The notes: generated by a model not told the origin, from the sequence alone. DNA of 64,000 nt from an uncultured bacterium (GCA_964531335.1 CAZHEV010000012.1:34866-98865); one strand, 5' to 3'; positions 17,316 through 63,495 are shown, counted from the stretch's first letter. Numbers and translations are program-made.

Positions 17316-17556
17316 ACACGTGCCTCGGATTCGCGGAGGCATTGTGAGGTTGTCGAGATCCAACGCAAACGGCCCTGGAGGCGGAAGCAGATTCGAGGGG
17401 AGTGCTTTGTATGCTGCACCACGTGCAAAGGCAAGGCCGTGTGCCAGCACTAGCCAATTAATATCAATGGTCCATAAGTTCAGCTGATACTTGAGAGCGT
17501 CAGAAAGTAAGCGCTTTAAGTCGCCGTCTGCTCTGCGGCTTTGTGATTGCGAGGCA

Positions 17557-20445
17557 ATGATGGAGGCTGCCAGGTCGTGGTCTTGTGTCGCAGTATCGCT
17601 GTGTTCATTTATAGTGTGCGCTGTGTCCTGCGGATTGCCGGCCATCGTAGAAGGCGGATCTACCAGATTGTCACTCCATACAACCAGAAGTCCTACAGAC
17701 AACAAGGGCGATTGGACTGATGGAGCGGGCGCTTATGGCGACGCAGGAACAAGTGCAGTATCAGTTGAAACCAATGCGTTCCATGAGTTCTTCGATTTCA
17801 ACTTTGATTTGCCACAACAAGCATTGATAACCGGCATTGTAGTAGAGGATGATAGCTGGTATTCCGGACACATTGCTCAGCCGGAAATTACGATACTACT
17901 CTCCTGGGATGGGGGCTATAACTGGACAAGTGGCGTCTCGCATTCGCTTGAGAGCGCGGAGCTCACGTATCCAACAGGCTCGCCAACAGGTACATGGGGC
18001 GAGAAATGGCTGCCCGGCGAGCTTAACAGTAGTGACTTTAGAGTTGCAGTAAAGTCAGCCTCGGGCCTTATTGTCCAAGGAAGCAGCTTTAGACTGGACT
18101 GGATCAGGGTGACTATACACTATACGGTACCCTTTGATGATACTCCTCCGCTCTTGCAACTCCAAAGTCCTAGACCGGAGGTGTACAGATGCGGGTTGGG
18201 CATCCCGATAAGGTATTCTGTGTCGGACAACATATCTGTGGATAAGTGCTGGTATACAATCGACGGCAGCAATGCAACTTCTCTGCCCGCCTGCGACGGA
18301 ACCACACTGGACGTTAGAGAAGGGCATCATAGGCTCGATGTATATGCGAGGGACTGGTGCGGAAACGTGCAGCACGGCTGCGTAAGCTTTACGGTAGATT
18401 CCGCCCCTGAGCAACCCATCCTAGCAATTTATGACAGGTCCATGCCCGGAAACTATTATGATCACTACATAAGTGAGATAATGAAGGTGGAGGGAGTAAT
18501 GGGCTTTCAAGTTGTGGATCTGTCTGATTACAGAAGTGGCTCCTATCCCCTGACGAAGTATGACGTCATCATTGTACTGGCAACATCCACGCTTACTCGG
18601 AATGAGACATCTGAGCTCGATGCATATGTCGCAGGTGGCGGGTCGCTCATAGGTATAAAACCCAACCCACAGCTTGCGGATCTCTTTGGAGTTGTGGCGC
18701 TGAACACCGCTATGGCTGGCGGATATGTAGCAGTTGACACTAGTACGGCGATTGGAAGAGGTATCGAACTCCAGCCGATACAGTATCATTCGGACGCTGA
18801 TCTATACCATTTGAACGGTGCCCATGCCCTTGCATGGATTTGCGAGAGACGAGACCGGCCAACGGAACATCCGGCAGTGACAGTTAACAATTACGGGGCA
18901 GGTAATACCGTGCTTTTCACCTATCCGCTTGTAAAGACGGTTGTTCTATTACATCAGGGGAATGATGAATTGCCCGACTTGACCGACGCCGACGGAGACG
19001 GAATATATCGACCACAAGACTACTTCGCAAATGGCTTCTATGACCCAGTGAATGCGACGATTCCGCAGGCGGATGAGCATCAATCACTTCTGGTGAACTC
19101 AGTGTATCACTTGATGTCTGATAAGATGCCCGTGCCGAGGCTCTGGTATTTGCCGGGTGGCGCAAAGGCAATGTGTTTGATACAAAGCGACTCGGGCGGG
19201 GATGATGGTGGACGAGATGTCGAGCTAGAGTTCCACTCGAACATTGTGGAGACCTACGGCGGCCGCTCGCATTACAACATTCTTGATCTCGACATGAGCG
19301 TTCGGCAGTGGGCGGTCTTGATCAACGACGAGCACACCGTGTCCCCCCATGTGTATGTTGGTGACAGGCCATCACTTGATTCAATGAGAAGTGGAATTAG
19401 GCGGGACGTAAATGACTTCCTTAGAAAGTATGGGCGAATGGGCAGAACGCAGGTCACCCATAGCAACGTATTCCCGGGGTACTGGGAGAGTGCGAAGTAC
19501 TTCTCTGATTGTGGACTTAAGATGAGTACACAGAATGGTGCGCCCATCAAAGATTATCCTCACTACGGGTACATGATGGGATCGGCGTTGCCTTTCAGGA
19601 TTGTCAAGAATGAGGAGGGCAATGACATCGTTGATGCATATCAACTGCCAATAGTGATGTCGGACATGGTCATGATTGAATATGGCAATTACACGGAGTC
19701 GGAAGCAATGGAAATAGTCGAGAATCTATTGGATGACTTGGTTAATAACTATCATGGCGTGGCAAGGCTGAATTTCCATGCAAATGGTGTCTATAGCAAT
19801 AATGGGCATTATGAGACGCGATGGTTTACTTCTTGCCTGGAGCTATGTAGGGATAAGTCAATACCTATGCTGTCTTCCGATCGGTTCTATCATTTCTGGA
19901 TGGATCGGATGACAACCGAGTTTCATGACATCCGGTATGATGACAGTCTATTCACCTGCCGGATCATAGGAGCGCCAGATTCGGCAAGGCTGGCGGTTCC
20001 GAGCGAGCTCAGTGAACTAAGAGTCGATTGTATAGAGGTCGACTCAGATGAGACTGGTTATGAGGTTGTCGAAATAGATGGGCGATACTACGCCATGTTT
20101 GCGATTAGCGCGCCAGATTGTAATGTAGCTGTTCATTATAGGTCGTCTGAGTCGGTGTCAGGGCAGGCTTGTCGTTTGTTACAGAATGTGCCGAATCCGT
20201 TCTGTGCGCCGAGTGGCACTAATATTCGTTATGAAGCTGAGAAGAATGGCGAAGTGGAGATTCTGATCTTCGACGCCGCCGGGCGCCTGGTGGGTACACT
20301 ATGCGACAGGGCGCGGGAAGGCATTAACGCTGTCTTCTGGTCAGGCATTAGGCAAAACGGAGATTACGTCGCCCCTGGCGTTTACTTCTATCAGCTGAAT
20401 GCTGAAGGTTTCCATGGACAGCGGAAGATGATACTGGTGTACTGA
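17557..20445 (+). CDS. large secreted multidomain protein with a C-terminal FlgD-Ig/T9SS-type sorting-like domain
   Basis: ORF 17491-20445. ATG 17557 gives a signal peptide (MMEAARSWSCVAVSLCSFIVCAVSCGLPA). Beta-sandwich/Ig-like segments are followed by a C-terminus ...NPFCAPSGTNIRYEAEKNGEVEILIFDAAGRLVGTL...APGVYFYQLNAEGFHGQRKMILVY, which resembles FlgD-Ig/Por-secretion C-terminal domains. GC is much lower than in the flanks. Confidence 0.8.
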   Translation: MMEAARSWSCVAVSLCSFIVCAVSCGLPAIVEGGSTRLSLHTTRSPTDNKGDWTDGAGAYGDAGTSAVSVETNAFHEFFDFNFDLPQQALITGIVVEDDSWYSGHIAQPEITILLSWDGGYNWTSGVSHSLESAELTYPTGSPTGTWGEKWLPGELNSSDFRVAVKSASGLIVQGSSFRLDWIRVTIHYTVPFDDTPPLLQLQSPRPEVYRCGLGIPIRYSVSDNISVDKCWYTIDGSNATSLPACDGTTLDVREGHHRLDVYARDWCGNVQHGCVSFTVDSAPEQPILAIYDRSMPGNYYDHYISEIMKVEGVMGFQVVDLSDYRSGSYPLTKYDVIIVLATSTLTRNETSELDAYVAGGGSLIGIKPNPQLADLFGVVALNTAMAGGYVAVDTSTAIGRGIELQPIQYHSDADLYHLNGAHALAWICERRDRPTEHPAVTVNNYGAGNTVLFTYPLVKTVVLLHQGNDELPDLTDADGDGIYRPQDYFANGFYDPVNATIPQADEHQSLLVNSVYHLMSDKMPVPRLWYLPGGAKAMCLIQSDSGGDDGGRDVELEFHSNIVETYGGRSHYNILDLDMSVRQWAVLINDEHTVSPHVYVGDRPSLDSMRSGIRRDVNDFLRKYGRMGRTQVTHSNVFPGYWESAKYFSDCGLKMSTQNGAPIKDYPHYGYMMGSALPFRIVKNEEGNDIVDAYQLPIVMSDMVMIEYGNYTESEAMEIVENLLDDLVNNYHGVARLNFHANGVYSNNGHYETRWFTSCLELCRDKSIPMLSSDRFYHFWMDRMTTEFHDIRYDDSLFTCRIIGAPDSARLAVPSELSELRVDCIEVDSDETGYEVVEIDGRYYAMFAISAPDCNVAVHYRSSESVSGQACRLLQNVPNPFCAPSGTNIRYEAEKNGEVEILIFDAAGRLVGTLCDRAREGINAVFWSGIRQNGDYVAPGVYFYQLNAEGFHGQRKMILVY

Positions 20446-37353: not shown

Positions 37354-38463
37354 TCAAGGCTCCTCTCCGGCCTCAGCCGCCAGGTGATAGACGGCCATCG
37401 CCAGATTCGCAGGGTAGGCGCGCGCGTCGCTCAGGATCCTGTAATCGCCGAAGGAAAACGGCAGGCTCCCGTCGGGCCTCTGCACGCCCAATGTCCACTC
37501 GTAGCCCTTTCGCGACAGTTCCCGGTATTCTCCCAGGCCCCATCGCGTGGCGCACGAAAGCGCATAGGCCAAGGTGTGGGCGTGATAGATGACGCGCGGA
37601 AGCTCGCTCTTGCAGCTATACCTGCAAGCCCCCTCGCCCGTGACCCCGCCCGCCAGAAAAGGGGCCATCTTGGCGGCGATGGACCGGGTCTCCAGGCGCT
37701 CCTTCCTCTTCCAGGAATGATAGAGATCTATCAGTTGAAACGCGTTGTACTGGTAACACTGGTAATGAGGGACGGAGCGGTCGTAGCCCTCCCCGGGGAC
37801 CTCGTAGGGCATCTCCCCGGTCTCTGTCTGCACGTCCTGGAGAAAGGCGAGCAGGGGGTCGGCCATCTTCATCGGCGCGGGGTCGTCCGAGGCGTCGGCG
37901 AGCTCCGAGAGAAACCAGAGCGCGGCGGTGGAGTTATTGGGCACCTTGCCGCGCGGCACGTTGAAGTAGTTGACCGCCGCTCCTTTTGCGCCGTGGCTCT
38001 GGTAACCTATGCGACCTTCCATGAACCTCCACCAGGCCACCGCCGCGTCCAGGCACTTCGCGTCGTCGGTCCGCCTGTATGTGGCCAGCAGTCCCGCGCC
38101 CGCCCAGAGCCCCTCTATGTTGGTCACCAGGTGGCGCCGCTCCGGCATGGGGCTGGGCCAGCTTCCGTCATCGCGCTGGCCTTCCATGCAGAAATCGCTC
38201 GAGGCCATGGCTATCTCGGCGAACCGGTCGTCCTTCGTGAGCCTGTGAAGTAGCCAGTTGCCGAGGATCCAATAGCCCTGGCCCTGGTAGGAGACGACGT
38301 CGTCCCTCCAGGGCAAGAAGGTCGTATATCCCTTGACGAACCGCCAGAACCTGAGGTTCCAGCGAACGCCCGGGGTGGGGCCGCGGAGGGCCTTGCCGTC
38401 CCAGTGCTCCCCCACGAGGTACTGGTGGAGCCTCAGGGCGGACTCGAGGAGGTTCTCTTTCAT
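37354..38463 (-). CDS. hypothetical protein, possibly an (alpha/alpha)6-toroid fold (terpenoid cyclase/prenyltransferase-like repeats)
   Basis: A 369-aa ORF with good coding appearance. The repeated DGSWP / PDGSLPF motifs resemble alpha/alpha-barrel repeat proteins. Function unknown. Confidence 0.6.
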   Translation of the reverse strand: MKENLLESALRLHQYLVGEHWDGKALRGPTPGVRWNLRFWRFVKGYTTFLPWRDDVVSYQGQGYWILGNWLLHRLTKDDRFAEIAMASSDFCMEGQRDDGSWPSPMPERRHLVTNIEGLWAGAGLLATYRRTDDAKCLDAAVAWWRFMEGRIGYQSHGAKGAAVNYFNVPRGKVPNNSTAALWFLSELADASDDPAPMKMADPLLAFLQDVQTETGEMPYEVPGEGYDRSVPHYQCYQYNAFQLIDLYHSWKRKERLETRSIAAKMAPFLAGGVTGEGACRYSCKSELPRVIYHAHTLAYALSCATRWGLGEYRELSRKGYEWTLGVQRPDGSLPFSFGDYRILSDARAYPANLAMAVYHLAAEAGEEP

Positions 38464-38782: not shown

Positions 38783-41782
38783 GTGAGACTTGTCAGAGTT
38801 TTTGTCTCATCTCCGGGAGACGTCCAGGAGGAGCGCAGGGTCCTGGAAGAGGTGGTGGACTCAGTTAACGGCGACGTCGGCGAGAGGCACTCCGTCTTCC
38901 TGAAGCTCTTTCGGTGGGAGAAGGACGTCGTTCCGCGGATAGGGCCCGCTCCTCAGGAGGTAGTGGACGCCCAGGCTCCCTATTGCGACATCTTCCTTGG
39001 GATCATGTCCGGCCGGTTCGGGACTAGAACGGGCAAGTGGGGCTCCGGGACGGAGCACGAGTTTCGCCAGGCGGTAGAGAGGTGGGGGAGGAGCGATTCC
39101 CCCTGGATCCTTTTCTACTTCGACGACGAGCCGCCGACACCGAAGACGCGTGATGCGGCCATGCAGTTCGCCAAGGTTTTGGAGTTTCGCGAGGAACTCA
39201 AGAAGCTCGGGATTACGGGCAGCTACAAAGGCGTGCAGGGCGACCGTTCTTCGTTTGCCTGGCAAGCCGGCGAGCACCTGCGCCGGATCGTGCTCAATCA
39301 TCTGCCGCCAATTGAATCGGGGGAAGGCGCCGGGGCGAAAAGACCGGCGCCCGGCCACATGGTAGAGGCCGGACTCAAACCACCTGCCGTTCCAAAGGCG
39401 TACCGCGACTGGCTATGTTCCCAGTGCTCGGAGATCGGCCTCCTGGGTCTCGAGCTCAAGCAGTCCCACGCCGTAAGGCTCAGCCATGTGTACGTCCCGC
39501 TATGCACTCACGCTGTCTCCGAAAAGAAGCGCGGCGAGCGTTCCCGCCGTGAAGACGAGCGCTTCCTGACCGACATGCCCGGGCGTGAGGCCAAGCCGCG
39601 GTTGCTCCTTGATCTTCTCGGGAAGGAGTCCCTCTACGTTCCCGGGGCGCCGGGGGCGGGCAAGTCGACCTTCTGCCGGTGGGTGGCGTGGCTTGTTTGC
39701 AACGCTGACATGCCTTCCTACATAACCGAAGCCGCGGACACCCCGGAGGGCTACGCTGAGAGCTTTCCCAGCGCCTTTGGCGGGAGACTCCCGGTCCTGA
39801 TCAGGCTGCGCGAGTTCTGGGAGTACCTGCCACGCTCGCCGGGTCGATGCGAGATGACAAAGGACGAGCTGGATAGAGCAATCGGAGAGTGGTTCGAGAA
39901 CAAGACGCCCAAGGGCATCGAATGGACCGGCGGCAGCGGGCGGGCGGACCTTGCGACTCATATGGAGCAGGGCTCGGCGATCCTGATATTGGACGGGGCC
40001 GACGAGGTGCCGCTCTCCGGCGAAGAGAAAAGGCCCTGCTCTCCGCGTGCGATGCTCCTGTCGGGCCTCGCCTCGGCCGTACCGTCATGGATGAAGACCG
40101 GCAATCGGGTCCTGCTGACGAGCCGCCCCTACGGGCTGGGCACTCGGGAGTCCGAGACGCTGGGCCTTAGGCAGGCGCCCATAGTAGAGCTGGACCCTGA
40201 CCTCCAGAACCTTCTCATTATACGCTGGTTTGCGATCCTTGAAGGTGACTCCGCTACCGGCGAGGAGGTGGCCCGGGAGATGATCACGCACATACGCGGT
40301 CGCAACGACATAGATCCTCTTGCCTCAAATCCGATGCTCCTCACCGCGATGTGCGTGATATACGGCGAGGGCAAGCGCCTACCCCAGGATAAGCACGATC
40401 TCTACACGCGTATCGTCAACAACGTGCTGTACAACCGGTTCCACCGCGATCCGACGCTTATCGACCCGGTCCGCAACCGTCTCGCCGTCGTTGCGCACGG
40501 AATGCACACAGGTGAAGCTCTCGAAGAGGACAGAACAGCTCCCCAGGTGGAGGCGACGAACGAGGAGATAGACATAATCCTCCGGGACTACCAGGACAAC
40601 GTGCCGTTTACCGAGTCCGCCTTCGTGGACGCCGTCCAGGCGCGCGAGCAGCTTCTGGCCGAGTCCGGGCTGCTGCTGCCCCGCGGGGAGGGCAGGGCGG
40701 GGTTCTACCACCTCTCCTTCCAGGAGTTCCTCGCCGCACAGAGGCTCATGGAGCTGGATGCAGCACGCCTCCGGGAGGTATTCCGAGAGCGAGCGGAAAC
40801 CTCCGAGTGGAGAAACACTCTTTCGTTCCTGTTCAGCTCAAGACTGGCCGGATCGGTGTCCCCGGAGGGGAGCACCAGGTTGCTGGCGGAACTGCTGAGC
40901 GAAGTCTCCGTTGAGAAGCTCGGGCTGCACGTGGTCGTGGCGGACTGTTTTCAAATACTGCTGGGAAAGGGGATCCGGCTTCCGGAGGCTCTCGAGGAGA
41001 AGTTCCGAAAGGACTGCCTGAGCGCGATCAAGGCGGAGGTCTCCATTCCCGAAAGGGTGCATCTCGGGCTGGTGCTGGGGCAGATAGGCCACCCCAGAAT
41101 TGTGACGGATCTCAGGGACAGGGCCGCGTATGTGGAGGTGCCGCCAAAGCGGTATTTTGTGGGCGAGAAACGAAAGCGTTTTGATTTGAAAGAGAGTTTT
41201 CTGCTCTCGCGATATCCGGTGACCAACGGGCAATATGCGGTCTTCGTTGAAGAAGAGGGATACAAGGATCGGAAGTGGTGGTCTGATGAGGGATGGAAGT
41301 GGCGTGAAAGTGAAGACGTCCGCGAACCCGGCTACTGGCACGATCGTACCTGGAATGGTCCCACTCAGCCGGTCGTGGGCGTATCGTTCTACGAGGCGGA
41401 GGCGTTCGCGCGCTGGGCCGGAGGCCGTCTGCCCGCCGAGAGGGAATGGGAAGCGGCGGCACGAGGGCCGGAAGGATACGTCTATCCCTGGGGGGACGAC
41501 TGGGAGGAAGGTATCTGCAACAGCGATGAGTCCGGCGTCGGCGCCACAACGCCGGTCGGCCTCTTCCCTCGGTCTCGGTCGGCGCCGTTCGAGCTGGAGG
41601 ACATGTCGGGCAACGTGTGGGAATGGTGCTCGGATTACTATGACCCGACGGGGTCGCCCGGAGCCCGTGTTCTGCGCGGCGGTTCCTGGATCTATGGATC
41701 GAGGGGCCTGCGCGCCGCCATTCGCCTCAGGGGCGTCCCCGTCCTCCGGGTCGTCAGCATAGGATTTCGGGTTGTCTTGTGA
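38783..41782 (+). CDS. DGR target 1: NLR-like STAND NTPase (DUF4062/TIR-like N-domain, NACHT, HEAT-like linker, C-terminal FGE-type C-type-lectin fold carrying VR1)
   Basis: A 999-aa ORF starting at GTG 38783, with GGAGG upstream. The N-terminus reads VRVFVSSPGDVQEERR...CDIFLGIMSGRFG...ILFYFDD. Walker A GAPGAGKST is at 39644-39670 and Walker B ILILDGADE at 39980-40006. The FGE/SUMF1-like domain spans about 41129-41779 (YPVTNGQY...VVGVSFYEAEAFARWAGGRLPAEREWE...GNVWEWC...RGGSW...IGFRVVL). Confidence 0.93.
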   Translation: MRLVRVFVSSPGDVQEERRVLEEVVDSVNGDVGERHSVFLKLFRWEKDVVPRIGPAPQEVVDAQAPYCDIFLGIMSGRFGTRTGKWGSGTEHEFRQAVERWGRSDSPWILFYFDDEPPTPKTRDAAMQFAKVLEFREELKKLGITGSYKGVQGDRSSFAWQAGEHLRRIVLNHLPPIESGEGAGAKRPAPGHMVEAGLKPPAVPKAYRDWLCSQCSEIGLLGLELKQSHAVRLSHVYVPLCTHAVSEKKRGERSRREDERFLTDMPGREAKPRLLLDLLGKESLYVPGAPGAGKSTFCRWVAWLVCNADMPSYITEAADTPEGYAESFPSAFGGRLPVLIRLREFWEYLPRSPGRCEMTKDELDRAIGEWFENKTPKGIEWTGGSGRADLATHMEQGSAILILDGADEVPLSGEEKRPCSPRAMLLSGLASAVPSWMKTGNRVLLTSRPYGLGTRESETLGLRQAPIVELDPDLQNLLIIRWFAILEGDSATGEEVAREMITHIRGRNDIDPLASNPMLLTAMCVIYGEGKRLPQDKHDLYTRIVNNVLYNRFHRDPTLIDPVRNRLAVVAHGMHTGEALEEDRTAPQVEATNEEIDIILRDYQDNVPFTESAFVDAVQAREQLLAESGLLLPRGEGRAGFYHLSFQEFLAAQRLMELDAARLREVFRERAETSEWRNTLSFLFSSRLAGSVSPEGSTRLLAELLSEVSVEKLGLHVVVADCFQILLGKGIRLPEALEEKFRKDCLSAIKAEVSIPERVHLGLVLGQIGHPRIVTDLRDRAAYVEVPPKRYFVGEKRKRFDLKESFLLSRYPVTNGQYAVFVEEEGYKDRKWWSDEGWKWRESEDVREPGYWHDRTWNGPTQPVVGVSFYEAEAFARWAGGRLPAEREWEAAARGPEGYVYPWGDDWEEGICNSDESGVGATTPVGLFPRSRSAPFELEDMSGNVWEWCSDYYDPTGSPGARVLRGGSWIYGSRGLRAAIRLRGVPVLRVVSIGFRVVL

Positions 41783-41799
41783 ATTGGCGTCAGGACTCC
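41666..41799 (+). repeat. DGR variable repeat 1 (VR1) plus IMH-like 3' end
   Basis: Aligns to TR 43428-43561 at offset 1762. There are 19 differences, all at TR adenines (hand alignment). It includes the target 1 stop codon at 41780-41782. Confidence 0.92.
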
Positions 41800-41836
41800 G
41801 TATCAGCTTGGCCCCTTTACATTTGTCTTTCTCTGT

Positions 41837-41860
41837 GGCGTCGCGATTTGCCGTGACGCC
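41837..41860 (+). other. stem-loop downstream of VR1
   Basis: GGCGTCGCG (41837-41845) pairs with CGTGACGCC (41852-41860), giving 9 bp including one G-T pair, with a 6-nt loop. It lies about 55 nt after the target 1 stop and before avd. Confidence 0.45.
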
Positions 41861-41887
41861 GCAAGTGCTTTGCGGGACTACACAGCT

Positions 41888-42265
41888 ATGCCGGAAGCCT
41901 CCTCGGAAATGTTGTTGATTACGAAAATGTATGACTTCGTGCTGTGGAGCTGCCGGCACATCGCCAAGTTTCCGCGAAGCCACCGTTTCACTCTCGGCGA
42001 CAGGATGGAGGTCCGACTGTACGAGTTGCTCGAGCTTTTTCTGAGGGCGAAGTATTCTCGTGATCGGCTTCCAACTCTGCGGAAGGCCAACATGGAGCTG
42101 GAGCTACTTCGCTTCCAGTTTCGTCTCGCGAAGGACTTGGAGTGCCTTTCGGTGAAAAGCTACGGCTGCTCCTCACGCACTGTGAATGAAATCGGCAAGC
42201 TACTGGGCGGGTGGGTCAAGAAAGCCTCCGCGAAACCGGTGCAAACCCCAAGGCGGCAACCATGA
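41888..42265 (+). CDS. avd: DGR accessory variability determinant (Avd; four-helix-bundle / 23S rRNA IVS-protein family)
   Basis: ORF 41870-42265 (TTG); ATG 41888 or 41909 is the likely start. The sequence LLITKMYDFVLWSCRHIAKFPRSHRFTLGDRMEVRLYELLELFLRA...LELLRFQFRLAKDL matches the helical FP-(K/R)-x-x-(R/K)-(F/Y)-x-L-G-D-(Q/R) pattern of this family. Its position immediately upstream of the RT also fits. Confidence 0.85.
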   Translation: MPEASSEMLLITKMYDFVLWSCRHIAKFPRSHRFTLGDRMEVRLYELLELFLRAKYSRDRLPTLRKANMELELLRFQFRLAKDLECLSVKSYGCSSRTVNEIGKLLGGWVKKASAKPVQTPRRQP

Positions 42266-42297
42266 CTCCCTTCGCAAGCAGATGAGATGAAGGACAG

Positions 42298-43362
42298 GTG
42301 AGAAGACAAGGCGGCATCTGGGAGGAGCTCATTAGCTTCCCGAATCTTCTGCGGGCGGCCCAGAAGGCCGCCCGCGGCAAGCGGGCTCGGTCGAACGTGG
42401 CTCGGTTCCACCTGGACCTGGAAGGGCAGCTCTGTCGGCTCCAGGACGAGCTTATCGCGAAGACTTACCTTCCGGGTCAGTATCGAACCTTCGCGATACA
42501 TGAGCCGAAGGCCCGCACTATCAGCGCCGCACCGTACCGGGATCGTGTCGTCCATCACGGCCTTTGCCAAGTGCTGGAGCCGGCATTCGAACGTCGGTTC
42601 ATCTTCGACAGCTACGCGTGCCGCAAGGGAAAGGGGACTCATGCGGCGCTGGCCCGCTTCACGCAGTTCGCCAGAAGAAACCGCTACGTCCTCAAGTGCG
42701 ACGTTCGAAGGTACTTCCCGTCTATCGACCATGAGATCTTGAAGGGACAAGTCCGAAGGAGGATCAAGGACCGGGACGCCCTGTGGTTGGTCGATCTGAT
42801 CGTCGATCATTCCAATCCACAGGAACCTGTGTGCGACTGGTTTCCCGGAGACAATCTGCTCACGCCTTCAGAGCGGCGCCGTGGTCTTCCGATTGGCAAC
42901 CAGACAAGCCAGTTCTTTGCCAACGTCTATCTCGATCCGCTGGACCACTACGTCAAGGAGCGGCTGCGAGCGCGCTACTACATTCGCTACGTCGACGACT
43001 TTGTTGTCTTCGGGGATGACAAAGAGTGGCTCTCAGACGTGCGGGATCGGTGCGCGGGGTTCGCTCGCGGCCTTCGTCTGGCTCTACACGAGCGAAAGTG
43101 CGTGATATCCCGCACCTGCGATGGTACGCGATTCCTCGGTTTTCGCGTCTTCCCTACTCACAGGCTGCTCGCGCGGGAGAACGTCGCCCGGACGAGGCGG
43201 CGGCTCCGGTGGCTTGGGGGCGAGTTCGCCGCGGGTCACGTGTCGGCGGCTGATGTGAGCCGCCGCATTATGAGCTGGATAGGGCACGCTCAGCACGGAG
43301 ATACATTCCGCTTGCGCTCCAGGCTCTTCAGGGAGAATACTTTCTCACGGAAGGGCGAGTAG
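42298..43362 (+). CDS. DGR-type reverse transcriptase
   Basis: A 354-aa ORF starting at GTG. RT motifs include [50 protein letters not shown] (the [ILV]GxxxSQ variant that I recall as DGR-specific) and [12 protein letters not shown] (YxDD). Confidence 0.95.
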
Positions 43363-43427
43363 GTCCTCTTAGGCGGGTGGTTCGCCGGCGGATGTCACGG
43401 TACCTTCTCGGGGGGCGGTCGTAACTT

Positions 43428-43561
43428 CGTGTTCTGCGCGGCGGTTCCTGGAACAATGAATCGAGGAACATGCGCGCCGCCATTCGCAACAGGAACAACC
43501 CCGACAACCGGAACGACAACATAGGATTTCGGGTTGTCTTGTGAATTGGCGTCAGTACTCC
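43428..43561 (+). repeat. DGR template repeat (TR) with IMH*-like 3' end
   Basis: This non-coding copy lies 66 nt downstream of the RT stop and is rich in AAC triplets. In the target frame it would read [38 protein letters not shown]. It is the adenine-bearing parent of VR1 and VR2. Confidence 0.92.
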
Positions 43562-43718
43562 ACATGGAAGCTTCGGGCATGGCAATTGCGTTGTCCAAGG
43601 AGGGCCGGAGCCGGCCGATTCACGGATCGGACGGGAGCGCCCCCGTGGGAGTCCAGACCGCCGTCCGGCGTCGGCCGCATGGCCCGGGGCCTCAGTCGGC
43701 CGGCCGAAACAACAAACC

Positions 43719-43763
43719 GTCCCGCGGGGACTGGTAGGCCCCGGCCGAAGGCCCCCGCGGGAC
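43719..43763 (+). other. strong GC-rich stem-loop downstream of the TR
   Basis: GTCCCGCGGGG (43719-43729) is the perfect reverse complement of CCCCGCGGGAC (43753-43763), across a 23-nt loop. It lies about 160 nt after the TR end and about 65 nt before the ATPase gene. Confidence 0.6.
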
Positions 43764-43826
43764 TCGTCAAGAGCATTCGTTCTAGCGCGATCTGAAGGAA
43801 GACGCCGCATGAGGAGGGCGGAAGGG

Positions 43827-45056
43827 ATGCTGAGCAAGGAAGATGAGGGTCTTCTGAAGAAGGCACTGAACGTCTTTGACCCGGCGCGTCCACTTGAGGG
43901 CGAGCTGTTGGACAGCTTCTACATTTCTAGGCCCCATGCGCCCTTGAAGGCAATGAAGGCCTATCTCCGTGCCAACCAGAGCCCCGTCAAGGTGCTTTTC
44001 TGCGGTCACAGGGGTTGCGGGAAGTCAACGGAGCTTGCGCGTCTGGCAAAGGATCTGGAAAATGAGTTCTTAATTGTCCCGGTCTCGGCCCGATCGCTCG
44101 ACCTGGCCGATCTCACCTATGTCGATGTCATCCTTGCCTCCGCGGCGGGATTGTTCCTCCAGGCAAGCTCGGTGAAAGGCGCGGCTAGGATCAAGTCAAG
44201 CGTGCTGAAAGACGTGCTGGAGTGGCTTGGGAGCGAGATCGTCCGGGAAACGACGGTGTCCGTCTTGAAGTCGGGAAATATGGGCGCGAAGCTGAGTGTT
44301 TTGATACTCAGCCTCCAAGGCAAGTACTCGAGTGAGACGACCACGCGCAAGACGGTGAGAGACCGCCTGTATCGGCAGGTAAGCGACCTCATTCAGCGCA
44401 TGGATGCCGTATGCGAAGAGCTGGAGAAGAAAGGCGTTCCGCCGCTGATACTCTTTGAAGATATAGACAAGGCGGATCTGGAGAGGGCACGAGGTCTGTT
44501 CGTAGAACATAGGAACACCATGATCAGCCCGGCATGCAGGATAATCTATACTTTTCCGATTTCATTGAGACATTCACACGAGTTTCCGGCCATTCGACGT
44601 GACTACAGCAAGGTGTTCTCTCTCCCAAACATCAGTATCAACGAGAGAAATGGTTCGATCGACGCGCGGGGGCGTGAGGCCATAGGGTCCGTGATTACAC
44701 GAAGAATCCCGGGGGAAGTCTTCGAGAAGAAGGCCTTCGATTCCATTGTGGAATTGAGCGGAGGACTTATGACGGACCTGGTTCGCCTTGTCTCGGATGC
44801 CGCCCTTATCGCCTTGACCGAAGGATCCTCGCACATTACAAATGAGATAGTGGAACGTGTCGAGGCTGAGATGGCTAACGACTACCGTAGGATTCTTGTG
44901 TCCGAGCACTATGATGCGTTGAGGCGCTCACTCAGTGAAAAAGAGTTCGTTGCCGACGATGTGACCCGCGAATTGCTGGCGAACCAAAGCCTTCTTGAAT
45001 ATCGCAATAACAAAGTGTGGTGCGACGTACACCCCATTGTTCGAGGGTTGTTGTGA
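43827..45056 (+). CDS. P-loop AAA+ ATPase (ORC/Cdc6-like or STAND-related), function unknown
   Basis: ORF 43809-45056 (ATG at 43809 or 43827). Walker A is FCGHRGCGKSTEL and Walker B is PPLILFEDIDKAD, followed by an alpha-helical C-terminal half. The stop TGA (45054-45056) overlaps the ATG of target 2 (45056). Confidence 0.85.
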   Translation: MLSKEDEGLLKKALNVFDPARPLEGELLDSFYISRPHAPLKAMKAYLRANQSPVKVLFCGHRGCGKSTELARLAKDLENEFLIVPVSARSLDLADLTYVDVILASAAGLFLQASSVKGAARIKSSVLKDVLEWLGSEIVRETTVSVLKSGNMGAKLSVLILSLQGKYSSETTTRKTVRDRLYRQVSDLIQRMDAVCEELEKKGVPPLILFEDIDKADLERARGLFVEHRNTMISPACRIIYTFPISLRHSHEFPAIRRDYSKVFSLPNISINERNGSIDARGREAIGSVITRRIPGEVFEKKAFDSIVELSGGLMTDLVRLVSDAALIALTEGSSHITNEIVERVEAEMANDYRRILVSEHYDALRRSLSEKEFVADDVTRELLANQSLLEYRNNKVWCDVHPIVRGLL

Positions 45057-48000
45057 TGGGAACTAGGATCGATATGGATGCGCCGCTACAGCGGCTGGTA
45101 ACCTTGCTGAAGAACCTCGAGGAGGGAGCGATAATCTTTGCCGTCTATGATATGGCGGACGTTCCAGGTCGAGCTATCGGAGCTCTCAGAGCCCTGCTGG
45201 AGGGCCGCGTTCTGGAGCTCCGCATCGACAGGGAGCACAGAAACCCCGTCGATCTGGTTCGTTCTGCTGATGCGCGAAAGGGCGACGTGCTTTGCGTCCT
45301 GAACCTGGAGGAGGGCTTTCCGGACGCATTGGGCTATCTGGATCTTCAGCGGGAGGAGCTATTGGAATTCGGTGTGCCGGTCGTGATCTGGGTGACGCCG
45401 CACGAGCACCGCGAAGTAATAAGAAGAGCCCCGAACCTATACAGGTTCAGGAAAACGCTTGTGGACTTCAGGAGGGCCGGCTCCGAGGGACCACTTGAAT
45501 CCCGATCCGTACCCAAGGTCTTCATCTCGTCGACTGTAGAGGATCTGCGGCCGTATCGCGAGGCGGCGCGGGACGCGGCCATCAACGCGGGCTTCTTCCC
45601 TGTGATGATGGAGTATTTCACGGCCGTCGGCAGACCCCCGCTCGATGAGTGCATGGGCAAAGTGTCCGAGGCCCACCTGGTCGTAGTTATCCTCGCGCAT
45701 CGCTACGGGTGGGTCCCGGATGACCAGCCGGCCGGTGGAGACAAGAGTATCACCTGGCTTGAATGTGAGAGGGCGGAGCAGGAAGGCAAGGAGGTCCTGG
45801 CGTTTATCGTCGATGACGCCCGGAGTTGGCCCGAGGAGCGCCGAGAGGAGCACGATCTGGCTGTCGCCGCGAGAGAGAGCAAAGCGACCCCTGAGTTGCT
45901 GGAGAGGGTCCAGACAAGAGTTGCACGCCTGAGGCAGTTCAAGCGCTGGCTGGACGGCCGCGGGGTGCGCGTGACATTCACGACGCCCGAGGACCTGCAC
46001 GGGAAGATCTCGAATGCCCTGCACGCCTGGAGAAGCCGACATCCGGGCTTGGCCCAGAGTGCGGCCAAAACGCCCGCCCTGCCCGCCGACCCTGCGCGGT
46101 ATCTGAAGTACGTTCGGGAACAGACGGCGTACATAGACATCCGAGGGCTTCAGGTGGGCAGCGGCAAGGTCTTCCGATTTCCCATAGAGGACCTCTATAT
46201 CACTCTCACGACCACGGCCTCCGCGGAGACGGCTAAAGAGGAGAAGCGCAAGGGCAGGAAGGCGCGCGATGAGGCGGACCCCATGATGTCTCGCAGGGAC
46301 TCGTCCGTTCCTCTTCACAAGGCCCTGGCGAAGCGCCGGCTCGTGGTGGTCGGCGATCCCGGCTCCGGCAAGACGACGTTTCTGAGACGCGTCGCGTCCA
46401 CGCTTTCCCAGACGGCGCTCGGCGAGGTTCCCGACGCGGCGAAGAGTCGGCTGGGTCTGGCGGGAAAGCCGCTTCCGGTATTCGTCCGGCTGGTAGAGCT
46501 CGCCGAGCACATCGAGGAGAGTCGCCGCGTCCACGGCGGTCGGCGTCCATTGGCTCGCGACGCCGCTCGATGGCTGCCGCACTTTCTGGCATCCACAACC
46601 GAGGACGGGGGGCATGGGCTTGACGAGGAGTACTTCCGGGAACGCTTGGAGAAAGGCGATTGCGCGATCCTTCTCGACGGGTTGGACGAGGTCCCCACCC
46701 GTCCTTCTCGCGAGGGGATGTCCCGGCTCATAGAAAGGCTGGCCGGCGCCTATAAGGGCTGCATCCTCGTGGTCACCAGCCGCCCCGCCGCGTACACGGG
46801 GGAGACGGTGCTCCCCGGCTTTACACACGCGCGGATCGAATCGCTCGAAGAAGAAGCAATCGCAACCTTCCTCGGGAAGTGGTCGGGCGCTCTCTGTCCT
46901 GAGAGCCCCGGCGAGGCCGAACGCCACCGCGACGAGCTTGCGGGGGCTCTGACAAGCCGCCCGGAGATAAAGCGCATGGCGCGGAACCCGGTGATGCTCA
47001 CGGCGCTTGCCGTGGTCCATTGGAACGAGAGGCGGCTCCCGGAGCAGAGGGCGGATCTCTACCAGTCGATCATAAGATGGCTGTCCAGATCCCGCGAGCA
47101 GCGCTCTGAGAGGCTCCCCTCGGACAGATGTGTCGCCGTGTTGCAGGAGCTCGCCCTGGCCATGCAGAGTCACCCCGAAGGCCGCCAGGTCCAGGTGACG
47201 AGGCGATGGGCGGCGGAGGCGATCGCCGTCGAGCTCACCGGCGAGGGAGCGCAGCGCGCCGTGGCGGAGGCGCCCTCGGTGCGCGAGACCGCAAGATATG
47301 GCGCAGATGACATGAAGCCCGCGGGCGAGCCGTCGAGGCACGCCATAGAGCTGGCAGAACGCTTCCTCGAGGAGGAGGAGCAAGACAGCGGGATAGTGGT
47401 AGGCCGCGGAAACGAGATCCGCTTCTGGCATCTCACCTTTCAGGAATACCTGGCGGCGCGGGCTATTGCCGCCCGCTCCGAGGCGGAGCAGAAGGCGCTA
47501 CTTTTCGGCGATAGTGACAGAATCCACCGCCCCGACTGGCGCGAGGTCGTCCTGCTGCTGACTGGGGTGTTGCACCAGCAGGGCAGACAAAAGGTGGATG
47601 GGTTCGTATCCCAGGCGCTCGACATGATCGGAGAGAGGCCGAGCCTCTCCCGTCAGGCGCGGTGCGCCGGTCTTCTGGGCGCCCTTCTCCGCGATCTGGC
47701 CCCCCTGGACTATAGGATTTCCGACGCAAGATATCCGAAGCTCCTCGATACGGTCATGGGCGTATTCGACGCGAAGCGCTCGAGGTCGGTTTCCATTGAG
47801 GAGCGCGTCGAGGCGGCGGAGGCGCTGGGCCAGGCGGGCGACCCCCGACTGAACATGAACGATCCCGATCGCTGGATACACATACCCAAGAAGCCCTTCC
47901 TCATGGGAGCTCAGAAAAAGGATCCAACGAAGCCCGGTTACGATCCGGGGGCTGACGATGACGAGGCGCCGGTGAGGACAGTAAACCTCGATGCCTACCG

Positions 48001-48598
48001 GATCGGGCGCTACCCGGTGACGGTGGAGGAGTACGAGCGGTTCGTCGAGCACGGGGGCTACGAGGAGAAGCGTTGGTGGAAGGAGGGGGGCTTCGGGCAG
48101 TTCGCCGAGCCGGGGGACTGGGAAGAACAGCTCGCACACCCCAATCGCCCTGTTGTGGGTGTGAGTTGGTATGAGGCGGCTGCGTACGCGGCGTGGGCGG
48201 GGTGCGGGCTTCCCACGGAGGCTCAGTGGGAGAGGGCGGCCAGGGGCACGGACGGCCGAAAGTACCCCTGGGGGGACGATCCGCCCGATCCCGCCAGATG
48301 CAATTACGAAGAGACCAGGCTTGGACGCGCGACGCCCGTGGGTGTCTTCCCGCTGGGCGCGACACCGGAGGGCGTTTGCGACATGGCCGGAAACGTCTGG
48401 GAGTGGTGTCAAGATTGGTACAGTGAGGCATACGAGCCCGGCCGGCTTGACAACCCTCGGGGGCCTGACAGAGGGACACTTCGTGTTCTGCGCGGCGGTT
48501 CCTGGGGCTATGTATCGTGGAACTTGCGCGCCGCCATTCGCGGCGGGGGCAACCCCGGCGACCGGCTCGACGACCTGGGGTTTCGGGTTGTCTTGTGA
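45056..48598 (+). CDS. DGR target 2: NLR-like STAND NTPase (unknown N-module, DUF4062, NACHT, HEAT-like linker, C-terminal FGE-type C-type-lectin fold carrying VR2)
   Basis: ORF 45017-48598. ATG 45056 overlaps the upstream stop (ATGA). The DUF4062-like region KVFISSTVEDLRPYREAARDAAINAGFFPVMMEYF...ILAHRYGWVP...ITWLECERA...VLAFIVDD spans about 45515-45830. Walker A GDPGSGKTT is at 46352-46378 and Walker B ILLDGLDE at 46667-46690. The FGE-like domain spans about 47873-48595 and ends ...RGGSWGYVSWNLRAAIRGGGNPGDRLDDLGFRVVL. Confidence 0.93.
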   Translation: MGTRIDMDAPLQRLVTLLKNLEEGAIIFAVYDMADVPGRAIGALRALLEGRVLELRIDREHRNPVDLVRSADARKGDVLCVLNLEEGFPDALGYLDLQREELLEFGVPVVIWVTPHEHREVIRRAPNLYRFRKTLVDFRRAGSEGPLESRSVPKVFISSTVEDLRPYREAARDAAINAGFFPVMMEYFTAVGRPPLDECMGKVSEAHLVVVILAHRYGWVPDDQPAGGDKSITWLECERAEQEGKEVLAFIVDDARSWPEERREEHDLAVAARESKATPELLERVQTRVARLRQFKRWLDGRGVRVTFTTPEDLHGKISNALHAWRSRHPGLAQSAAKTPALPADPARYLKYVREQTAYIDIRGLQVGSGKVFRFPIEDLYITLTTTASAETAKEEKRKGRKARDEADPMMSRRDSSVPLHKALAKRRLVVVGDPGSGKTTFLRRVASTLSQTALGEVPDAAKSRLGLAGKPLPVFVRLVELAEHIEESRRVHGGRRPLARDAARWLPHFLASTTEDGGHGLDEEYFRERLEKGDCAILLDGLDEVPTRPSREGMSRLIERLAGAYKGCILVVTSRPAAYTGETVLPGFTHARIESLEEEAIATFLGKWSGALCPESPGEAERHRDELAGALTSRPEIKRMARNPVMLTALAVVHWNERRLPEQRADLYQSIIRWLSRSREQRSERLPSDRCVAVLQELALAMQSHPEGRQVQVTRRWAAEAIAVELTGEGAQRAVAEAPSVRETARYGADDMKPAGEPSRHAIELAERFLEEEEQDSGIVVGRGNEIRFWHLTFQEYLAARAIAARSEAEQKALLFGDSDRIHRPDWREVVLLLTGVLHQQGRQKVDGFVSQALDMIGERPSLSRQARCAGLLGALLRDLAPLDYRISDARYPKLLDTVMGVFDAKRSRSVSIEERVEAAEALGQAGDPRLNMNDPDRWIHIPKKPFLMGAQKKDPTKPGYDPGADDDEAPVRTVNLDAYRIGRYPVTVEEYERFVEHGGYEEKRWWKEGGFGQFAEPGDWEEQLAHPNRPVVGVSWYEAAAYAAWAGCGLPTEAQWERAARGTDGRKYPWGDDPPDPARCNYEETRLGRATPVGVFPLGATPEGVCDMAGNVWEWCQDWYSEAYEPGRLDNPRGPDRGTLRVLRGGSWGYVSWNLRAAIRGGGNPGDRLDDLGFRVVL

Positions 48599-48615
48599 AT
48601 TGGCGTCAGGACTCC
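48482..48615 (+). repeat. DGR variable repeat 2 (VR2) plus IMH-like 3' end
   Basis: Aligns to TR 43428-43561 at offset 5054. There are 19 differences, all at TR adenines (hand alignment). It includes the target 2 stop codon at 48596-48598. Confidence 0.92.
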
Positions 48616-48967
48616 GTAACGGTTTAGCCCCTTTACAGGTCCGCCGGGCACGCGCCCTCACGTCCGGGGAGCACGGCACGTCTCCGAGTTGTCCACCCGG
48701 CCGCCCCCGCTTGTACCATCTCGTAGCCTGTGCTAACATAATCTCGGTAATTGGCGGAGGCAAGCAGGGTGAGAGCTGGATGACCTCCTCACAGGATTGG
48801 TTTGGTTCCTCACGGCCTGGGCCGGACGTGGCCTGGCCCTGGCCGCAACGAACTTTGCCTTACACTTTCACTCGAGCCCTGACGATTTTGGACTTCTGGC
48901 GTTGTCCCGGCGCCGCCGCTCGCGGCGGCGGCCCTGAGATCGGATTACCCCAGGGCGAAAAGGACGT

Positions 48968-60115: not shown

Positions 60116-60192
60116 GCGGAAGTAGCTCAGTCCGGTAGAGCTCCACCTTGCCAAGGTGGCCGTCGCGGGTTCAAATCCCGTCTTCCGCTCCA
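60116..60192 (+). tRNA. tRNA-Gly (anticodon GCC), CCA encoded
   Basis: Hand-folded cloverleaf. The acceptor is GCGGAAG/CTTCCGC and the D-arm is GCTC-AGTCCGGTA-GAGC. The anticodon arm is CCACC-TTGCCAA-GGTGG and the T-arm is GCGGG-TTCAAAT-CCCGT. The discriminator is T, followed by CCA. Confidence 0.93.
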
Positions 60193-60252
60193 AATACTGC
60201 CTAGAGGCTTTGGGCAGTGCCGCGCGGTCGGAGCCGATTCGTCGAAACGGAA

Positions 60253-60327
60253 GGCGGCATAGCCAAGGGGTAAGGCGACGGTCTGCAAAACCGTTATTCT
60301 CCGGTTCAAATCCGGATGCCGCCTCCA
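60253..60327 (+). tRNA. tRNA-Cys (anticodon GCA), CCA encoded
   Basis: Hand-folded. The acceptor is GGCGGCA/TGCCGCC, the anticodon arm is ACGGT-CTGCAAA-ACCGT and the T-arm is TCCGG-TTCAAAT-CCGGA. The discriminator is T, followed by CCA. Confidence 0.9.
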
Positions 60328-63407: not shown

Positions 63408-63495
63408 GCCGGGGTGGCGGAACAGGTAGACGCTGCGGACTTAAAATCCGCTGGAGTATTTCTCCGTGCCGGTTCGATTCCGGCCCCCGGCACCA
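63408..63495 (+). tRNA. tRNA-Leu (anticodon TAA), long variable arm, CCA encoded
   Basis: Hand-folded. The acceptor is GCCGGGG/CCCCGGC and the anticodon arm is GCGGA-CTTAAAA-TCCGC. The variable arm is TGGAGTATTTCTCCGT and the T-arm is GCCGG-TTCGATT-CCGGC. The discriminator is A, followed by CCA. Confidence 0.92.

Follow-up and report, generated by a model that had tools for sequence, protein, structure and literature searches.

A complete and probably functional chromosomal diversity-generating retroelement with two STAND NTPase targets in an uncultured bacterium

A reverse transcriptase (RT) gene that lies between two repeats differing at adenines raises the question of whether the locus is a diversity-generating retroelement (DGR) and, if so, what the proteins that it diversifies could be doing. 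Among prokaryotes, no system of targeted protein hypermutation is known apart from DGRs. The locus considered here lies in a 64,000-nucleotide (nt) stretch of DNA from an uncultured bacterium (GCA_964531335.1 CAZHEV010000012.1:34866-98865), the whole of which we refer to as the window. Its anatomy, the adenine-specific pattern of its repeats, the family assignments of its genes and the covariation of its RNA were established directly, and they leave us in little doubt that the locus is a bona fide DGR. As read from its sequence, this DGR is complete, chromosomal and probably functional. The coordinates of its features are collected in Table 1.

The initial annotation of the window had aligned the template repeat (TR) with a variable repeat (VR1) by hand and listed 19 substitutions, all at TR adenines, with no C, G or T difference within 43428-43555. 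An ungapped machine comparison (offset 1762) reproduced the list exactly: the substituted TR positions are 43453, 55, 59, 67, 68, 70, 88, 89, 94, 95, 97, 98, 43504, 06, 07, 12, 13, 16 and 19, with a spectrum of 8 A>T, 8 A>G and 3 A>C. Apart from adenines, the two copies differ only by T>G at 43556, a position slightly beyond the range given in that annotation. Since 32 of the 128 positions are A, the hypergeometric probability of all 19 changes in one VR falling on A is 1.6e-14. The translation of the TR given earlier, its spacing of 66 nt after the RT stop and the 17 nt of VR1 past the target stop were likewise correct, and the TR/VR repeat family was also recovered by an independent repeat finder.

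We then scanned the whole window for TR-like sequence, tolerating mismatches at adenines only. The scan found a second variable repeat, VR2, in a second target gene, and no further copy beyond TR, VR1 and VR2 on either strand. VR2 differs from the TR by 19 adenine-only changes (12 A>G, 5 A>T, 2 A>C) and by the same T43556>G. As VR1 and VR2 carry different outcomes at shared TR positions, they are two independent products of one template. The element had been placed at 41666-43561; this holds for its core, but the element extends to the second target with VR2 and to a structured RNA 3' of the TR. In the frame of the targets, the 29 variable adenines of the TR lie between 43452 and 43526 in 18 codons, nearly all of them at codon positions 1-2, and AAY accounts for 10 of the 18 variable codons. 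From the codon table, adenine mutagenesis of the TR can reach no stop codon and can give ~1e15 protein variants per target.

It is conceivable that the repeats came from ordinary duplication or gene conversion beside an unrelated RT of the retron, group II intron, Abi or DRT kind. IMG does label homologues of the RT 'retron-type reverse transcriptase', and PADLOC DRT models match it partially, as they would any RT. This origin would have to explain why the positions that are A in only one of the copies, 25% of the total, account for 38 of the 40 differences, and why the RT stays under every curated cut-off for those families: it scores 131.7 against 300 for group II intron maturases and 41.9 against 235 for retrons, and is also far under the curated Drt2-5 and AbiA cut-offs. 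Nor was there any intron or retron RNA match in Rfam. The best solved relative of the RT is the RT of the Bordetella phage BPP-1 DGR (8ub7; E 1.8e-53, end-to-end alignment), followed by a group II intron RT (E 7.7e-22). Among 20 homologues, the catalytic aspartates, LPIGNQTSQ and YVDD show little or no variation, and the YVDD that the initial annotation had noted is intact. The Avd-like open reading frame (ORF) reported between the repeats passes the curated model of DGR-Avd proteins, a DGR marker (NCBIfam NF033474, DivGenRetAVD; 111.6 bits, cut-off 80), as well as Pfam bAvd (83.8 bits, cut-off 40), and it weakly matches the BPP-1 Avd structures 4dwl and 8ub7_B. We therefore find an origin by ordinary duplication beside an unrelated RT scarcely credible, and assign the RT, on its sequence features, to the DGR lineage with an intact active site.

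The avd start at 41888 was likewise called in Logan contig L001 (SRR7048218, 1777 nt), which is 100% identical to window 41773-43549, the avd-RT segment. The ends of this contig fall inside VR1 and inside the TR, a typical repeat-caused assembly break, and SRR7048218 is a read set where VR heterogeneity would be measurable.

To place the locus among its relatives, we recovered 80 loci (81 counting the window) in an RT profile search of species-representative genomes. Among their hosts, Planctomycetota come closest (59-65%); many filamentous cyanobacteria, with Trichodesmium erythraeum IMS101 and Nostoc among them, are also represented, as are Acidobacteriota, Thiomargarita and further lineages. 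Ungapped A-specific TR/VR pairs were sought with a basic self-BLAST DGR finder, which gave 70 pairs in 49 of the 81 loci, the window counted. The related loci share the gene order target-avd-RT-TR, often with a second target after it; the TR nearly always comes directly after the RT, with the VR ~1.7 kb upstream, and every target ends in an FGE-type lectin domain with relatedness to the lectin domains of the window targets.

The non-coding stretch after the TR is 247 nt long, and ~200 nt of it is RNA supported by covariation. In an alignment of 38 loci, 88.7% of cells are paired, and sliding the partners by 1-3 columns lowers this to 30-45%; covariation reaches a score of 0.66, compared with at most 0.15, and none of 500 shuffles scored as high. 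Double changes were seen at 34 of the 36 pairs. In most of the 38 loci, complementarity exists between a segment ~10-25 nt upstream of the TR and a segment after CCAGAC, despite differing sequences. Rfam gave no family in the cassette, at gathering thresholds over the whole window or at E<=1 on 41600-44000, and found three tRNAs only; the RNA flanking the TR is therefore not a curated family. Scans for promoters and terminators gave nothing informative. In BPP-1, a TR:Sp priming duplex, an Avd-binding stem-loop and a 'cPRT Stop' duplex with a stem-loop and adenosines are essential, and these elements have been predicted in 207 other DGRs (bioRxiv 10.1101/2023.10.23.563531). The RNA elements of the window correspond to the TR:Sp duplex, the Avd-binding stem-loop and the 'cPRT Stop' duplex.

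By analogy with BPP-1, we infer the following steps. The RT-Avd complex would bind the transcript that carries the TR and its flanking structured RNA, and cDNA synthesis would be primed in cis at the duplex that the 3' end of the TR forms with the RNA downstream of it. The RT would copy the TR and misincorporate opposite adenines, and the mutagenised cDNA could then replace the VR at the 3' end of either target gene. Directionality would come from the IMH-like (initiation of mutagenic homing) constant segment, which differs by one base from the copy in the TR. Some 18 codons of the sensor domain would be diversified in this way, free of stops.

How the direction of transfer may be set is suggested by the constant 3' ends of the repeats. 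The segment 43527-43561 is identical in TR, VR1 and VR2, except that the TR has T43556 where G is found at 41794 (VR1) and 48610 (VR2). The same contrast, C/T in the TR and G in the VR at ~5 nt from the end of homology, occurs in 46 of the 70 TR/VR pairs of the related loci, and in 30 of those 46 it is the only non-A difference. Position 43556 sits immediately 5' of the P1 (TR:Sp) duplex, and the equivalent position in BPP-1 is the first templated base (bioRxiv 10.1101/2023.10.23.563531). We infer that T43556/G is likely to act as the IMH/IMH* discriminator of this lineage.

Past the TR homology, both VR flanks (41800-41825 and 48616-48641) contain GCCCCTTTACA. Over the window and the related DGR loci, a CCCTTT-type motif is present in 44 of 75 VR flanks compared with 2 of 52 TR flanks. 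This pyrimidine-rich motif is a candidate target-site element, which could stand in for the hairpin of BPP-1. The CCCTTT/TTTACC flank motifs span phyla (VR flanks of loci L002-L081) and are often repeated, as in (GCCCTTTT)n in Trichodesmium. We also considered a 12-bp hairpin ~35 nt downstream of VR1 and rejected it as a part of the element, as VR2 has no counterpart and neither fold beats shuffles.

Table 1. Features of the DGR cassette, with positions counted from the first nucleotide of the window.
Feature	Position	Strand	Description
Target gene 1 (999 residues)	38783-41782	+	DUF4062, NACHT/STAND NTPase, FGE-sulfatase-type C-type lectin fold (residues 801-998); Pfam scan
VR1	41666-41799	+	Mutagenised stretch 41690-41764; IMH-like constant 3' part 41765-41799; target 1 stop 41780-41782
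Pyrimidine-rich motif GGCCCCTTTACA	41810-41821	+	VR1 3' flank, past TR homology
avd, DGR accessory variability determinant (125 residues)	41888-42265	+	NCBIfam NF033474, Pfam bAvd
DGR reverse transcriptase (354 residues)	42298-43362	+	GTG start; LPIGNQTSQ and YVDD intact
Long-range duplex, 5' strand GGGGGGCGGTC	43410-43420	+	Pairs with 43656-43666; brackets the TR; resembles 'cPRT Stop' duplex
TR	43428-43561	+	Ungapped comparison; homology with VR2 begins at 43424
IMH*-like 3' part of TR	43527-43561	+	T at 43556
Structured RNA 3' of TR (Sp-like domain)	43557-43763	+	Alignment of 38 loci, RNAalifold, pair counts
P1, TR-3'-end:Sp duplex	43557-43567 with 43643-43652	+	Conserved CCAGAC follows
9-bp stem-loop	43611-43619/43626-43634	+	One internal mismatch; resembles Avd-binding stem-loop
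Stem-loop	43668-43674/43700-43705	+	A-rich tract 43706-43718 follows
11-bp 3' stem-loop	43719-43729/43753-43763	+	Invariant GGUAG...CGAA internal loop
P-loop ATPase gene (415 residues)	43809-45056	+	Weak AAA_16 and Sll1717-family similarity; between TR RNA and target 2
Target gene 2 (1180 residues)	45056-48598	+	N-terminal ~138-residue domain, DUF4062, NACHT, FGE-type lectin fold; ATG 45056
VR2	48482-48615	+	Mutagenised stretch 48506-48580; closes target gene 2 (last codons)
Flank motif AGCCCCTTTACA	48626-48637	+	VR2 3' flank

What, then, could the diversified proteins be for? The two targets are paralogues with 31% identity, and resemble NLR/Avs immune receptors in having an N-terminal DUF4062 effector, a central NACHT NTPase switch and a C-terminal sensor with an FGE-type C-type lectin fold. 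Motif search placed Walker A at residue 288 (GAPGAGKS) and Walker B at residue 400 (ILILDGADE) in target 1, and at residues 433 (GDPGSGKT) and 537 (AILLDGLDE) in target 2, whose open frame begins with GTG at 45017. The FGE-sulfatase domain is well matched in the two targets (Pfam; E 1.8e-47 and 4.2e-57), and their lectin fold weakly matches TvpA (PDB 2y3c). No transmembrane or hydrophobic membrane segment was found in target 1 or target 2, and both are predicted to be cytoplasmic. FGE-domain sensors have been placed in NTP-dependent conflict systems (Kaur et al. 2020, PMC7159879).

Hundreds of target homologues at 40-57% identity retain the NACHT-lectin core but vary at the N-terminus, where DUF4062, TIR_2, SIR2_2, metallophosphatase, trypsin or CHAT domains are found. 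Such effector swapping is typical of defence NLR/Avs proteins. The effector-swapped homologues of target 1 include P0180, P0184, P0188, P0193, P0198, P0221 and P0226.

In the window targets, the N-terminal effector position is taken by DUF4062 (PF13271; 31.2 bits in target 1 and 71.9 bits in target 2, gathering cut-off 24.7). Three 2026 preprints describe this domain as a TIR-like NADase with an effector role in defence, also where it forms the N-terminal part of an Avs2 STAND protein. The DUF4062 of target 2 weakly matches the DUF4062 structures of KpSwz and TEP1, while a PDB search with the domain sequence of target 1 gave no significant match. Across 46 homologues, one DUF4062 glutamate never varies; it is E93 in target 1 and, in target 2, E236, which comes three residues after a conserved Thr. 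The DUF4062 of target 2 (45506-45950) is of a subtype that reads S-I-T-W-L-E, which is shared by homologues P0149 and P0154.

Target 2 differs in having a further N-terminal domain, and this points to the role of the ATPase gene before it. The stop of the ATPase gene overlaps the ATG of target 2 (TGATG). Elsewhere, homologues of the ATPase are encoded directly upstream of STAND-TPR proteins, and over their first ~130-135 residues these proteins share 42% identity with residues 7-138 of target 2 (window 45056-45470). As target 2 shares its N-terminal domain with the STAND-TPR partners of the ATPase, it has been fused into a conserved two-gene module. That the ATPase is not a general accessory gene of DGRs follows from its absence from the 81 RT-related loci, among which tblastn found no copy. 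On this sequence evidence, the ATPase is the partner gene of the N-terminal domain of target 2 and not a component of the DGR. The module, made of an ATPase (~410 residues) and a STAND protein whose starts overlap or are adjacent, was also seen in L082 (8001-11614) and L084 (8001-11570), and PADLOC has no model for it. Its sensor consists of TPR repeats elsewhere and of the DGR-diversified lectin here.

From this architecture, a role of the targets as NAD-depleting immune sensors seems to us somewhat better than an even guess; the locus itself provides partial evidence for NADase function. A fuller proposal, which we put forward tentatively and judge to fall a little short of an even chance, is that the targets are hypervariable innate-immune receptors in which the DUF4062 NADase depletes NAD+, and that target 2 plugs a DGR sensor into a separate two-gene ATPase + STAND system.

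Several observations weigh against a functional DGR with such a role. The AlphaFold2 (AF2) model of DUF4062 has a pLDDT of 94, and its top PDB match is TIR-STING with a TM-score of 0.42 (E 6e-4), a weak fold match; flavodoxin-like folds score similarly. The S-x-T-E glutamate of KpSwz corresponds to E91 in target 1 and to Trp in target 2, which makes the catalytic glutamate ambiguous. We know of no DGR-diversified STAND protein for which an experimental ligand or immune role has been shown. For the DGR itself, no GC-rich hairpin or cruciform common to both VR flanks was found. Its absence is not unusual, because such hairpins are seen in just 34% of DGRs (PMC5758913). With the constant VR/TR end as an exact DNA query, a scan of JGI metagenomes gave no related contig. 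Finally, no VR allele variants turned up in a protein search with target 1 or in cluster look-ups, and both targets are single-allele in the databases searched.

The single alleles would fit a decayed or domesticated relic, in which the TR/VR pattern records past homing and diversification has ceased, and activity of the locus has not been observed. Yet all four reading frames are intact, the catalytic motifs are present and all RNA helices are preserved at this locus. Moreover, once the clade-wide IMH/IMH* difference is set aside, the 2 x 128 nt contain no non-A substitution, so the VRs have not drifted since the last homing. We therefore consider decay improbable, and current activity of the DGR would be the better reading of the same features.

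Similarly, we can ask whether this is a DGR carried by a phage or prophage for host-tropism switching in the manner of BPP-1. The initial annotation had likened the locus to the BPP-1 DGR, which is right for the mechanism but not for the biology, as the locus is cellular and chromosomal and its targets are cytoplasmic STAND NTPases, not a phage tail fibre. The mechanism and core genes are indeed alike, and the RTs of phage DGRs are detectable homologues. Those RTs are at most 42.5% identical to that of the window, though, compared with 60-70% for cellular homologues, and the targets are ~1000-residue cytoplasmic proteins, not tail proteins. The cassette (~38.8-48.6 kb) splits a polysaccharide-synthesis cluster, whose genes encode a sugar-nucleotide epimerase/dehydratase group, glycosyltransferases, carbamoyltransferase and aminotransferase, and no phage, integrase or plasmid gene was seen among ~20 flanking ORFs scanned. 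A phage-borne origin is thus most implausible. The three tRNA genes of the window (Gly-GCC, Cys-GCA and Leu-TAA, at 60116-60327 and 63408-63495) confirm the cellular chromosomal context of the DGR.

Third-position GC is 0.66-0.76 in the cassette genes, compared with 0.80-0.87 in their neighbours. This contrast, together with the interruption of the gene cluster, suggests that the cassette was acquired horizontally. Two other ORFs of the neighbourhood deserve mention. The one at 17491-20445 (984 residues) has a GC of 0.50 compared with ~0.63, a third-position GC of 0.54 and a weak match to a beta-galactosidase trimerisation domain, and forms a compositionally foreign island inside the polysaccharide cluster. 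The other (37354-38463, minus strand, 369 residues) is directly upstream of target 1 on the opposite strand; its third-position GC of 0.84 is coding-like, and it has no Pfam or PADLOC match.

The mechanism and components of the DGR are already known from BPP-1, and its biology matches the cellular DGRs of Doré et al., who described a two-STAND-target architecture (Doré et al. 2024, PMC10907252). Likened by architecture as described, the closest type is the STAND-NTPase type of their clade 5D (Thiohalocapsa PB-PSB1 DGR 3 and 6). Both are chromosomal, combine Avd, RT and TR, and have two paralogous targets that are predicted to be cytoplasmic, with N-terminal effector-type domains, a central NACHT/STAND NTPase and a single C-terminal FGE-type C-type lectin domain that carries the VR. 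They differ in that the N-terminal domain is DUF4062 here, whereas TIR, peptidase or extensions without characterised domains are reported there (PMC10907252), and in that target 2 is coupled to a P-loop ATPase gene via the shared N-terminal domain. The host of the window also differs, as it appears planctomycete-like from its closest homologues.

[quoted passage not shown] On the other hand, the TR of the window comes after the RT, the context is cellular, and there are two targets, which are STAND NTPases rather than a tail-fibre protein and have a lectin fold of the FGE type rather than the Mtd type. The VR flanks have a pyrimidine-rich motif instead of a shared GC-rich hairpin.

The DGRs of cyanobacteria (Trichodesmium erythraeum IMS101, Nostoc, Calothrix, Scytonema) have RTs with 47-55% identity to that of the window and resemble it in the order target-avd-RT-TR, in the RNA domain 3' of the TR, in the single G-versus-C/T IMH difference and in the CCCTTT-type VR flank. 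Their stem-loop has a GGGA (GNRA) loop, whereas that of the window locus has UCACGG. In published accounts, the targets of cyanobacterial DGRs are often vWA/MoxR-associated, rather than DUF4062-NACHT proteins.

A comparison can also be made with the DUF4062/NIR NADase defence proteins (Swarozyc, DUF4062-Avs2, Vulcan, Vesta and Evangelion; 2026 preprints). These share with the window targets the conserved S-x-T...E region and, as PsAvs2 shows, an N-terminal DUF4062 on a STAND NTPase whose C-terminal part is a sensor. In the window the sensor is a DGR-diversified lectin fold, not TPR or other fixed repeats, and retroelements or DGRs are mentioned in none of the three preprints on DUF4062. Compared with known DGRs, the additions of this locus are modest: a DUF4062 effector on DGR-diversified NLR-like sensors, and the coupling of target 2 to the ATPase module.

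We would like to emphasize that the locus leaves the understanding of how DGRs work unchanged, and that its interest lies in the proteins being diversified. To our knowledge, neither a ligand nor an output has been shown for any DGR-diversified NLR-like protein. Among bacteria, nothing comes closer to anticipatory antigen receptors than the use of DGRs on NLR-like proteins. If the targets are indeed NAD-depleting sensors, DGR-diversified bacterial NLRs, for which effectors have so far been mostly unassigned, would gain a defined biochemical read-out in NAD+ depletion. As the locus is compact (~10 kb), complete and apparently undecayed, and its targets carry a domain of an NAD+-hydrolysing family, it is a convenient test case, in which the level of NAD+ could serve as an easy read-out of what a DGR-diversified sensor recognises. 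If target 2 indeed plugs a DGR sensor into the ATPase + STAND system in the way proposed, DGR-diversified lectin domains would be interchangeable sensor cartridges for more than one immune chassis.

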